From contig OZ024760.1 in assembly GCA_964016885.1 (NCBI GenBank), forward strand, positions 24,738,001 to 24,802,000: a stretch of DNA of 64,000 bases, read 5' to 3'. This DNA comes from Eledone cirrhosa (taxonomy: Eukaryota). The notes below the pieces were generated by a model. It was not told where the DNA came from. It did not search any database and was given only the letters and a program-made list of their open reading frames with translations. This document shows, piece after piece, positions 16,301 through 20,210 of this stretch. Both the position numbers and the translations under genes were made by a program. Each line of letters begins with the position of its first letter. Positions within the stretch are counted from its first letter, which is position 1.

Positions 16301-18300
16301 CATCAGGACTACATATCCAGTGCTTTTATCGAGAATGACACAGCTAGAGACTTATAGAATACTTAGCTGTGTACAGGAACTGGTTTGAAAGAGCAGTTGC
16401 CGGTCCGGCAGAAATTAGAAATTGGAATAAATGCTCTGAAATAGCGATATATATGTGAATATAGACATAGAATATTCGAAAATATTCTGTATGTTTATAA
16501 TAAACATTTTGAAGACCTAATCGCTATAGAATAGAATACGTCACGTATTACAATTAGATTCTCGATAAAAGCAAGGGAAGTAATCTACGCGTTTCATTCT
16601 TGTTAGAAATCATCAGGACTACATATCCAGTGCTTTTATCGAGAATGACACAGCTAGAGACTTATAGAATACTTAGCTGTGTACAGGAACTGGTTTGAAA
16701 GAGCAGTTGCCGGTCCGGCAGAAATTAGAAATTGGAATAAATGCTCTGAAATAGCGATATATATGTGAATATAGACATAGAATATTCGAAAATATTCTGT
16801 ATGTTTATAATAAACATTTTGAAGACCTAATCGCTATAGAATAGAATACGTCACGTATTACAATTAGATTCTCGATAAAAGCAAGGGAAGTAATCTACGC
16901 GTTTCATTCTTGTTAGAAATCATCAGGACTACATATACAGTGCTTTTATCGAGAATGACACAGCTAGAGACTTATAGAATACTTAGCTGTGTACAGGAAC
17001 TGGTTTGAAAGAGCAGTTGCCGGTCCGGCAGAAATTAGAAATTGGAATAAATGCTCTGAAATAGCGATATATATGTGAATATAGACATAGAATATTCGAA
17101 AATATTCTGTATGTTTATAATAAACATTTTGAAGACCTAATCGCTATAGAATAGAATACGTCACGTATTACAATTAGATTCTCGATAAAAGCAAGGGAAG
17201 TAATCTACGCGTTTCATTCTTGTTAGAAATCATCAGGACTACATATCCAGTGCTTTTATCGAGAATGACACAGCTAGAGACTTATAGAATACTTAGCTGT
17301 GTACAGGAACTGGTTTGAAAGAGCAGTTGCCGGTCCGGCAGAAATTAGAAATTGGAATAAATGCTCTGAAATAGCGATATATATGTGAATATAGACATAG
17401 AATATTCGAAAATATTCTGTATGTTTATAATAAACATTTTGAAGACCTAATCGCTATAGAATAGAATACGTCACGTATTACAATTAGATTCTCGATAAAA
17501 GCAAGGGAAGTAATCTACGCGTTTCATTCTTGTTAGAAATCATCAGGACTACATATCCAGTGCTTTTATCGAGAATGACACAGCTAGAGACTTATAGAAT
17601 ACTTAGCTGTGTACAGGAACTGGTTTGAAAGAGCAGTTGCCGGTCCGGCAGAAATTAGAAATTGGAATAAATGCTCTGAAATAGCGATATATATGTGAAT
17701 ATAGACATAGAATATTCGAACATATTCTGTATGTTTATAATAAACATTTTGAAGACCTAATCGCTATAGAATAGAATACGTCACGTATTACAATTAGATT
17801 CTCGATAAAAGCAAGGGAAGTAATCTACGCGTTTCATTCTTGTTAGAAATCATCAGGACTACATATCCAGTGCTTTTATCGAGAATGACACAGCTAGAGA
17901 CTTATAGAATACTTAGCTGTGTACAGGAACTGGTTTGAAAGAGCAGTTGCCGGTCCGGCAGAAATTAGAAATTGGAATAAATGCTCTGAAATAGCGATAT
18001 ATATGTGAATATAGACATAGAATATTCGAAAATATTCTGTATGTTTATAATAAACATTTTGAAGACCTAATCGCTATAGAATAGAATACGTCACGTATTA
18101 CAATTAGATTCTCGATAAAAGCAAGGGAAGTAATCTACGCGTTTCATTCTTGTTAGAAATCATCAGGACTACATATCCAGTGCTTTTATCGAGAATGACA
18201 CAGCTAGAGACTTATAGAATACTTAGCTGTGTACAGGAACTGGTTTGAAAGAGCAGTTGCCGGTCCGGCAGAAATTAGAAATTGGAATAAATGCTCTGAA
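13351..18300 (-). repeat. 310-bp tandem array, left arm (16 units), hammerhead-containing retrozyme-like unit on the minus strand
   Basis: ATATGTGAAT recurs at 13351, 13661, 13971 ... 18001 (period exactly 310). I noticed only about 7 single-base variants. Confidence 0.97.
13480..13522 (-). ncRNA. Type I minimal hammerhead ribozyme motif (first of 16 copies, every 310 bp)
   Basis: Minus strand: GUAGUC-CUGAUGA-U-UUCU-AACA-AGAA-U-GAAA-CGCG-UA^GAUUAC, with stem I GUAGUC/GAUUAC. Confidence 0.8.
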
Positions 18301-18309
18301 TAAATGCTC

Positions 18310-20210
18310 TGTCTATATTCACATATATATCGCTATTTCAGAGCATTTATTCCAATTTCTAATTTCTGCCGGACCGGCAACTGCTCTTTCAAACCAGTTC
18401 CTGTACACAGCTAAGTATTCTATAAGTCTCTAGCTGTGTCATTCTCGATAAAAGCACTGGATATGTAGTCCTGATGATTTCTAACAAGAATGAAACGCGT
18501 AGATTACTTCCCTTGCTTTTATCGAGAATCTAATTGTAATACGTGACGTATTCTATTCTATAGCGATTAGGTCTTCAAAATGTTTATTATAAACATACAG
18601 AATATTTTCGAATATTCTATGTCTATATTCACATATATATCGCTATTTCAGAGCATTTATTCCAATTTCTAATTTCTGCCGGACCGGCAACTGCTCTTTC
18701 AAACCAGTTCCTGTACACAGCTAAGTATTCTATAAGTCTCTAGCTGTGTCATTCTCGATAAAAGCACTGGATATGTAGTCCTGATGATTTCTAACAAGAA
18801 TGAAACGCGTAGATTACTTCCCTTGCTTTTATCGAGAATCTAATTGTAATACGTGACGTATTCTATTCTATAGCGATTAGGTCTTCAAAATGTTTATTAT
18901 AAACATACAGAATATTTTCGAATATTCTATGTCTATATTCACATATATATCGCTATTTCAGAGCATTTATTCCAATTTCTAATTTCTGCCGGACCGGCAA
19001 CTGCTCTTTCAAACCAGTTCCTGTACACAGCTAAGTATTCTATAAGTCTCTAGCTGTGTCATTCTCGATAAAAGCACTGGATATGTAGTCCTGATGATTT
19101 CTAACAAGAATGAAACGCGTAGATTACTTCCCTTGCTTTTATCGAGAATCTAATTGTAATACGTGACGTATTCTATTCTATAGCGATTAGGTCTTCAAAA
19201 TGTTTATTATAAACATACAGAATATTTTCGAATATTCTATGTCTATATTCACATATATATCGCTATTTCAGAGCATTTATTCCAATTTCTAATTTCTGCC
19301 GGACCGGCAACTGCTCTTTCAAACCAGTTCCTGTACACAGCTAAGTATTCTATAAGTCTCTAGCTGTGTCATTCTCGATAAAAGCACTGGATATGTAGTC
19401 CTGATGATTTCTAACAAGAATGAAACGCGTAGATTACTTCCCTTGCTTTTATCGAGAATCTAATTGTAATACGTGACGTATTCTATTCTATAGCGATTAG
19501 GTCTTCAAAATGTTTATTATAAACATACAGAATATTTTCGAATATTCTATGTCTATATTCACATATATATCGCTATTTCAGAGCATTTATTCCAATTTCT
19601 AATTTCTGCCGGACCGGCAACTGCTCTTTCAAACCAGTTCCTGTACACAGCTAAGTATTCTATAAGTCTCTAGCTGTGTCATTCTCGATAAAAGCACTGG
19701 ATATGTAGTCCTGATGATTTCTAACAAGAATGAAACGCGTAGATTACTTCCCTTGCTTTTATCGAGAATCTAATTGTAATACGTGACGTATTCTATTCTA
19801 TAGCGATTAGGTCTTCAAAATGTTTATTATAAACATACAGAATATTTTCGAATATTCTATGTCTATATTCACATATATATCGCTATTTCAGAGCATTTAT
19901 TCCAATTTCTAATTTCTGCCGGACCGGCAACTGCTCTTTCAAACCAGTTCCTGTACACAGCTAAGTATTCTATAAGTCTCTAGCTGTGTCATTCTCGATA
20001 AAAGCACTGGATATGTAGTCCTGATGATTTCTAACAAGAATGAAACGCGTAGATTACTTCCCTTGCTTTTATCGAGAATCTAATTGTAATACGTGACGTA
20101 TTCTATTCTATAGCGATTAGGTCTTCAAAATGTTTATTATAAACATACAGAATATTTTCGAATATTCTATGTCTATATTCACATATATATCGCTATTTCA
20201 GAGCATTTAT

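Follow-up and report, generated by a model that had tools for sequence, protein, structure and literature searches.

Paired ends and clonal arms of inverted hammerhead-repeat arrays in Eledone cirrhosa point to Penelope-type insertion by repeated copying of a 310-nt unit

Animal non-LTR retrozymes are non-coding, low-GC tandem repeats with units of about 300 nt, each bearing one type I hammerhead, and occur in thousands of copies, as described in the available text of PMC7229834 and of a 2026 preprint (10.64898/2026.07.22.740005). Expression and RNA circles have been demonstrated for published retrozymes, with circles reported from coral, mussel and axolotl, and the synthesis of tandem cDNA from these circles, with Penelope-like elements (PLEs) as candidate helpers, was proposed in the same work (PMC7229834). 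In the preprint, Li, Clavereau and Pollet (10.64898/2026.07.22.740005) argue for a PLE origin from co-occurrence and pLTR likeness, and report that eight of nine Xenopus dimers showed no cleavage. Retrozymes, help from Penelope-type machinery and copying of circles are therefore ideas already in print in these sources.

PLE insertions, in turn, come with inverted partners and with a 30-40-bp tail, often at one end, according to the accessible part of PMC8557442. A PLE protein, predicted to be a dimer, nicks and extends both strands, with its reverse transcriptase (RT) initiating internally at two sites between which the genomic tail lies; mutating the hammerhead left insertion unaffected, and the RNA mainly used as substrate in vitro was the uncleaved form (PMC11167929, sections available). 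Here, a 64,000-nt stretch of the E. cirrhosa genome (contig OZ024760.1, 24738001-24802000; hereafter, the window) containing an inverted array of hammerhead-bearing 310-nt units was analysed together with its relatives elsewhere in the assembly. On balance, the array is best read as one insertion of a young non-coding hammerhead repeat, with the two strands of a (TA)n target likely cut by a Penelope-type protein and both DNA ends then used to copy one 310-nt RNA unit repeatedly, probably round a circle.

An inverted array of hammerhead-bearing units in a (TA)n target

The left target site, a (TA)n tract at 12640..13354, merges at 13347-13354 with the unit's own ATATATAT, where the left arm begins. 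This arm (13347..18300, minus strand in ribozyme sense) comprises 4954 bp, or 15.98 units of 310 nt; with phase defined as the position on the ribozyme-sense unit beginning CGCTATTTC, its 3′ end is site A (phase 303-310) and its 5′ end lies at phase 7. The right arm (18310..20216, plus strand in ribozyme sense; 1907 bp, 6.15 units) runs from a 5′ end at phase 290 to a 3′ end at site B (phase 26), and the right (TA)n target tract occupies 20215..20305. The final segment of the right arm (20191..20216, plus strand; phases 1-26) is a tail present on the B arm only, 35 nt long when counted from phase 301, and contains the motif CGCTATTTCAGAGCA, which is kept in older sister families. At the junction, a 13-bp tandem duplication (18285..18310, plus strand) presents GAATAAATGCTCT twice, the second copy being completed by a 9-nt filler (TAAATGCTC, 18301-18309) that may have arisen when the left cDNA end slipped back by 13 nt at GAA. 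Thus, the layout given in the preliminary description, namely inverted arms of 16 and 6 units, a 13-bp duplication followed by a switch of strand and phase, and 3′ ends pointing outward into (TA)n on both sides, was borne out. The window's allele at phase 52, rare in the family, is present in every unit of both arms; seven private substitutions were found in the left arm and none in the right.

The units are 34% GC, and no frame of 150 aa exists within the array. A type I hammerhead motif is present in all 22 units inspected, 16 on the left and 6 on the right. In the first whole unit of the right arm it spans 18465..18507 (plus strand; GUAGUC CUGAUGA - stem II - GAAA CGCG UA^GAUUAC), with the cut predicted at 18501^18502, after unit phase 171. 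Stem III consists of 2 bp and is palindromic, and no hammerhead was reported in the array by Rfam at the gathering threshold. The monomer folds better than shuffled sequence (z -5.0); the hammerhead core is unvaried in 66 young insertions, and changes in helices I and II preserve pairing. Sister families show a C3-G8/U3-A8 switch in the core, several of them having U3-A8. The repeat is dispersed, with 19,746 exact genomic matches of an internal 31-mer. By all sequence criteria it is a non-LTR retrozyme with predicted cleavage: it fits the definition of low-GC tandem units of 150-450 nt free of LTR, PBS, PPT and coding frame. It resembles the animal examples in having thousands of copies of a non-coding, AT-rich tandem unit close to 300 nt long, with a single type I hammerhead in each. 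Unlike published retrozymes, it is known from DNA. A 310-nt loop was seen in two contig sets derived from runs of unknown kind; tandem DNA would fit that observation equally well.

Paired A and B ends and clonal arms across the family

Exact B-end plus (AT)n junctions number 953 genome-wide, compared with none in the control, and the left-hand (A) end joined to (TA)n gave 539 matches with only the forward strand counted, the reverse-strand count containing duplicates; the family holds more than a thousand young, near-identical insertions. Three samples were examined: loci from a BLAST search in which 40 of 235 candidates were scored, the B ends that come first on C1 (40 of them), and 20 out of the 37 A ends for which no exact B partner was present. 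Among the 66 B ends listed as matches on C1 at 0-184 Mb, 39 have an exact A end in tail-out orientation within 20 kb (0.27 expected), and no A-A or B-B tail-out pair occurs among the ends listed there. The first 40 B ends, which were unselected, comprise 37 inverted insertions, one single-armed insertion, one at an assembly (N) gap and one further locus, which shows no junction in 9.5 kb but has an A end 15 kb away. The A end is in view at 35 of the 37 inverted loci, the other two running off the stretch. The A-end sample of 20, chosen because an exact B partner was absent, yielded 13 A+B insertions (B phases 26-33), one that was cut off and six single-armed.

Over all sets, 71 junction rows were obtained: 61 A+B, six with one end outside the stretch, and four others (L049, L061, L062 and a repeated junction in L117). 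The script had called 62 A+B, but one of these, the second insertion of L128, is a mislabelled local duplication and was taken out of that class; L122, L052, L154 and L161, missed by the script because of hairpin overlap or arms shorter than 20 nt, are A+B by eye. No A+A or B+B junction occurs among the 71 rows, of which the B sample could show B+B but not A+A, while the A sample, picked against exact B ends, could show A+A. Site A corresponds to phases of about 296-310 and site B to phases 26-33, placing B 35-42 nt from the commonest A (301). Inverted arms and (TA)n targets, both anticipated at other loci by the preliminary description, are therefore the rule in this family (37 of 40 unselected B ends; 953 junctions versus a control of zero). 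Its expectation of random start phases, in contrast, was not upheld: the 3′ ends lie at two fixed phases, where RT would start, and only the stopping points scatter.

Either arm can be the longer, the A arm being so in 22 of the 47 rows, with medians of 945 and 1215 nt, and arm lengths are weakly correlated (rho 0.26, p 0.075). Inner 5′ ends are scattered and mildly uneven (p 0.022 over ten bins), with three of 102 near the predicted cut site versus 4.9 expected. In the first sample, 5′ ends had seemed to accumulate at phase 52, an effect traced to the window's rare allele in the reference combined with BLAST ranking. Microhomology of at least 2 nt is present at 31 of the 52 filler-free junctions (null, 19%), and filler at 19 of all 71. 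Sub-unit insertions such as L118 and L156 keep the A+B design. The array in the window is a real and typical copy of its family.

Within an insertion, the two arms are clonal. Among 40 insertions with both arms at least 600 nt long, arm haplotypes are identical in 39 (permutation mean 3.7, maximum 12, in 20,000 permutations); these 40 carry 24 haplotypes, 19 of them seen only once, and the unselected subset is concordant in 21 of 22 cases. After 13 older-subfamily loci were set aside, 66 young insertions showed 32 haplotypes. For instance, variant 19G occurs in 37 units genome-wide, of which 35 are fixed in both arms of three arrays, the remaining two being single-unit changes on other backgrounds, and the haplotype of the 16-unit array L332 is absent elsewhere in the assembly. 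Across the 73 arms with at least four units, excluding L045 and skipping the variants of L122, 146 variants are confined to a single unit and 25 recur; 11 of these 25 shared variants fall in two older-subfamily arrays. About 750 crossings of phases 169-175, counted after exclusion of six loci that were older or misaligned, contain no private indel. A-to-I editing was considered as a source of the fixed variants and rejected (8 A>G versus 5 T>C, p 0.18). A haplotype fixed in all units of both arms, together with a predicted cut site free of scars, favours repeated copying of one unit.

The repeat array bears the full signature of a Penelope insertion. In common with the PLE insertions of PMC8557442 and PMC11167929, in the parts available, it has an inverted 5′-truncated partner, partial tandems, a one-ended tail, (TA)n targets, two putative RT start sites and, presumably, extension of both strands, and its A/B offset matches the tail between the two RT start sites of PMC11167929. 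Unlike a PLE, the repeat is protein-free, and a single arm can run to 30 or more turns. The pairing of one A with one B per event is not resolved by the bulk in vitro PLE assay, in which start sites are alike between strands (PMC11167929, available text). The available portions of the animal non-LTR retrozyme texts describe no inverted layout with two arms, no fixed ends of the A and B kind, no targeting of (TA)n and no clonality of arms, and a two-armed A+B footprint or clonal arms in retrozymes were not found in the literature outside subscription papers.

A related two-ended design arises in LINE-1 twin priming, where both target ends prime cDNA and a head-to-head junction with microhomology results; the arms there are non-overlapping parts of one linear RNA, one of them starting at the poly(A). 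The arms of the repeat, in contrast, start 35-42 nt apart and both repeat the same 310-nt unit.

A neighbouring Penelope-like element and the question of a helper

The window also contains a PLE insertion that served as a comparison element, consisting of a short-ended inverted arm (56101..57644, minus strand) and a long-ended arm with an 80-nt tail (57644..59999, plus strand). The long arm carries a 5′-truncated RT-thumb-GIY-YIG frame (57611-58624), frameshifted near its end. Its family, with many 98%-identical copies, has a 3531-nt period and a 784-codon open frame (717 aa from the first Met) with the motifs RLRWR, SDKT, WFNPP, CNCPDRSIC, a C-terminal VIY...YIG, and CNLC/CKH. In the available text of PMC8557442, the Hydra clade is characterized by a C-terminal endonuclease (EN), RWK, DKT, CxCX5C, CxxC and CxH, and (TA)n, and Naiads by an N-terminal GIY-YIG endonuclease and a DKA motif. 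The neighbour shares with Hydra PLEs the C-terminal position of GIY-YIG, RWR in place of RWK, DKT, the CxCX5C linker, the CxxC and CxH around conserved E and N, WFNPP and the (TA)n target. It differs from the elements described in the available text in its period of 3531 nt compared with under 3 kb, its 80-nt tail, and a hammerhead-like motif with a U3-A8 core as read by eye. It is placed in the Hydra clade by its motifs rather than by a tree; a Pfam profile search of the frame named no domain. The neighbour contains no CUGANGA, and the U3-A8 variant was read by eye and not recovered by script.

The preliminary description had called this insertion a Naiad-type element of the same layout as the array. 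The layout, inverted and tail-out in (TA)n, stands; the Naiad label gives way to the C-terminal GIY-YIG and DKT. Across the Hydra family, a short end is coupled with a long one, offset by 80 nt, at all 16 loci examined, which had been chosen for frames that were full-length or on opposite strands. Of 40 unselected short ends, 30 are accompanied within 10 kb by a tail-out long end, with no short-short and two long-long pairs; one locus reaches 4.5 turns of 3531 nt. The likeness in layout between array and neighbour is therefore real and general. With 20,620 long-end junctions genome-wide, the probability of one falling in any 64 kb is 0.36, which makes the closeness of the neighbour to the array uninformative.

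The suggestion that this neighbour is the helper of the retrozyme was not sustained, given the absence of shared sequence, tails of 80 versus 35-42 nt, and a proximity expected by chance. Comparison of the repeat with the Hydra unit by blastn-short gave at best 11 nt (E 0.83). The 3′ ends of four young PLE families were unlike the repeat (p 0.28-0.80), a by-eye resemblance to a Neptune-type short end did not hold up (p 0.43), and 22 PLE fragments, 20 of them long enough to score, gave a best p of 0.015 in 40 tests, nothing convincing. Thus, no 3′/pLTR sequence shared with an autonomous partner was found among the four young families and 22 fragments sampled. In this respect the repeat differs from the expectation of Li et al. 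(2026), who in the available text favour local tandem growth from a pLTR; it has no link to any PLE 3′ end tested.

Tail length offers another comparison. A second Hydra family has an 88-nt tail and a third family one of about 57-60 nt (by eye). A very young PLE family with a 4734-nt period, an upstream frame, KGLKF, CX4CxxC, and GIY-YIG at the C terminus (PF01541), labelled Neptune-type from these motifs rather than from a tree, has a 38-nt tail, and one short and one long end at nine of ten picked loci; of the PLE families measured, it alone matches the offset of the repeat. The motif CGCTATTTCAGAGCA has 5,372 genomic matches, and the 30 loci read are sister retrozymes, not PLE ends; it is absent from the supplement of Craig et al. 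2021 (PMC8557442). Older sister retrozymes hold CGCTATTTCAGAGCA between the equivalent two ends, suggesting that it marks a likely binding signal. The U3-A8 core, found in several sister retrozymes and seemingly in the Hydra neighbour as well, is a weak pointer toward the neighbour's family. The helper has about an even chance of belonging to some other family; the Neptune-type family is a tentative candidate, and the neighbour's own family a more doubtful one.

Template, priming and rival explanations

In the favoured reading, arrays would be transcribed, cut by the hammerhead and ligated into 310-nt circles, by analogy with the retrozymes in the available text of PMC7229834. The protein, a predicted dimer in PMC11167929 (available text), would bind the RNA near the conserved motif between A and B and nick both strands. 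One 3′ end would then prime at A, aided by the unit's ATATATAT, and the other at B, 35-42 nt away; how many turns each cDNA then makes would vary. Joining of the two 3′ ends of the cDNAs would rely on 1-5 nt of microhomology or a short templated filler, after which each arm would be filled in on the other; at the window locus, slippage of the left cDNA by 13 nt would have preceded joining. The paired A+B ends and clonal arms support the earlier proposal of a single event in which Penelope-type machinery primed from both DNA ends. Its further element, repeated copying of one unit, is well supported by the 39 of 40 concordant arms and the fixed haplotypes, and the template was likely a covalent circle.

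Several observations count against this reading. Stem III has 2 bp only, the hammerhead was dispensable in PMC11167929 and eight of nine Xenopus dimers stayed uncleaved, as given in the available texts. The 25 recurrent variants occupy some units and not others: two linked changes are present in six of the 31 units of L148, two linked changes lie seven units apart in L128, and L137 switches haplotype inside one arm, which implies that several templates, multimeric ones or conversion at a later stage are involved at least sometimes. Identical arms could come from two molecules of one donor, six of the 20 picked A ends are single-armed, and no PLE 3′ end tested is significantly like the repeat.

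Two-sided Penelope-type priming may instead have used a linear template, either an uncleaved read-through multimer from a donor array or cleaved monomers joined by seamless template jumps. This is an improbable but serious alternative, given that uncleaved RNA is the main in vitro substrate for an anole PLE (PMC11167929, available text), that stem III is weak, and that unit variants recur 4-7 units apart in a few arrays. Moreover, L174 (4+5 units) and L331 (6+7 units) share a common haplotype, so that one could have templated the other. However, copying of linear multimers only shortens arrays, and fixing a variant in all units would need a one-unit bottleneck followed by regrowth; the fixation of 32 haplotypes among 66 insertions, and a haplotype of 16 units present at a single locus, argue against it. 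End-to-end template jumps tend to leave junction scars, as with R2 and group II intron RTs, and the scars or stops expected at the cut site are missing.

It is less probable still that each arm had an RNA template of its own, with every protein subunit using a different molecule and both molecules being circles that came from a single donor or cell. The two haplotypes carried by L137 and the weak correlation of arm lengths would suit this arrangement, as would the consideration that two enzymes sharing a 310-nt circle would have to displace the cDNA of one another. The concordance of 39 of 40 arm pairs, including the 19 haplotypes seen once, speaks against it, and independent complexes should yield A+A and B+B ends, of which none was seen.

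Growth of a short insertion by later unequal crossing-over or slippage, with inversion by DNA-level fold-back or repair, is very improbable. It would account for the variants that units share, a minority of which 11 of the 25 lie in two arrays of older subfamilies, and for the segmental re-duplication visible at L045, but it is contradicted by the A+B rule, with fixed and different ends on each arm, by the confinement of 146 of 171 variants to single units, and by the A+B design of the sub-unit insertions. An assembly artefact from a fold-back chimeric read is extremely improbable, since the inner phases (7 and 290) and the flanks differ, a mirror would have copied the private variants at 16937 and 17721 into a right arm that has none, and the design recurs genome-wide as a family rule.

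Copying of one repeatedly used unit from two fixed, paired starts thus remains the favoured reading. How retrozymes enter DNA, and how the tandem and inverted insertions of PLEs originate, are left open in the available text of PMC7229834, PMC8557442 and PMC11167929. Both questions become directly testable in the existing in vitro system with a substrate of 310 nt that is free of protein-coding sequence, whose two start sites are mapped and enclose a conserved motif, and which is represented by over a thousand near-identical insertions, and the one-A-one-B rule and clonal arms constrain the reaction beyond the bulk assay. More tentatively, PLE integration in general may be a two-headed rolling-circle reaction, in which one dimer, one ribozyme-made RNA circle and two fixed priming sites spool out both arms. 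If so, a single reaction would produce the pseudo-LTRs, tandems and inverted partners of PLEs, and retrozymes would amount to viroid-like circles stripped down to the ribozyme and to the binding signal that lies between the start sites.

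Mini inverted elements and tandem turns of the Hydra family

In the family of the window's Hydra-clade Penelope-like element (PLE), the typical paired insertion is a miniature inverted element measuring roughly 160-200 bp, and 24 of 30 are shorter than 205 bp; examples are loci L207-L220 (e.g., G000:C1:329713-329910). Their arms end at phase 3391-3412 of the unit, within predicted stem II, and a few end instead at phase 3430-3437, the predicted cut site; these arm ends may represent either a strong stop or the 5′ end of a transcript. At the single locus L097+L098, the 3531-nt unit occurs in 4.5 tandem turns, with a single mismatch between the two periods compared.

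Within the window's own Hydra element, a hammerhead-like motif with a U3-A8 core was read by eye at 59760-59905: ACCCC UUGAGAA ... GAAA CGGCU...AGCUG UC^GGGGU, where ^ marks the predicted cut. An inverted pair of 3′ ends from a third PLE family (60185-60400) directly adjoins the element.

Copies and occurrence of the 310-nt retrozyme

Haplotypes of the 310-nt retrozyme with one additional fixed base, located two letters past the predicted ligation site, were found at five loci (L117, L124, L151, L155, and L329). At L045, retrozyme arrays had been copied again as multi-kb segments, including their (TA)n flanks.

More than half of the retrozyme words were also found in 20 sequencing runs (X1-X20) from 16 studies, labelled as many different organisms. 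Contig sets from two such runs gave one clean 310-nt loop, which fits tandem DNA as well as it fits circular RNA; the Hi-C DNA sequenced in the X13 study yielded 0 reads and showed no loop.

Further window features and hammerhead units

A 21-bp minisatellite unit is present in 229 copies at window positions 491-5221, and a weak tRNA-like Rfam match (22985-23055, minus strand, 32.7 bits) is possibly the head of a SINE. Additional hammerhead-bearing 3′ ends lie in (TA)n at 29364-29590, 29916, 30103-30518, 34584, 35861, and 41195; those at 30103-30518 form an inverted pair, one arm being ~90 nt longer. Other hammerhead units, tandem or repeated, occur at L121:6679 and L124:332, and probably represent further retrozyme families.
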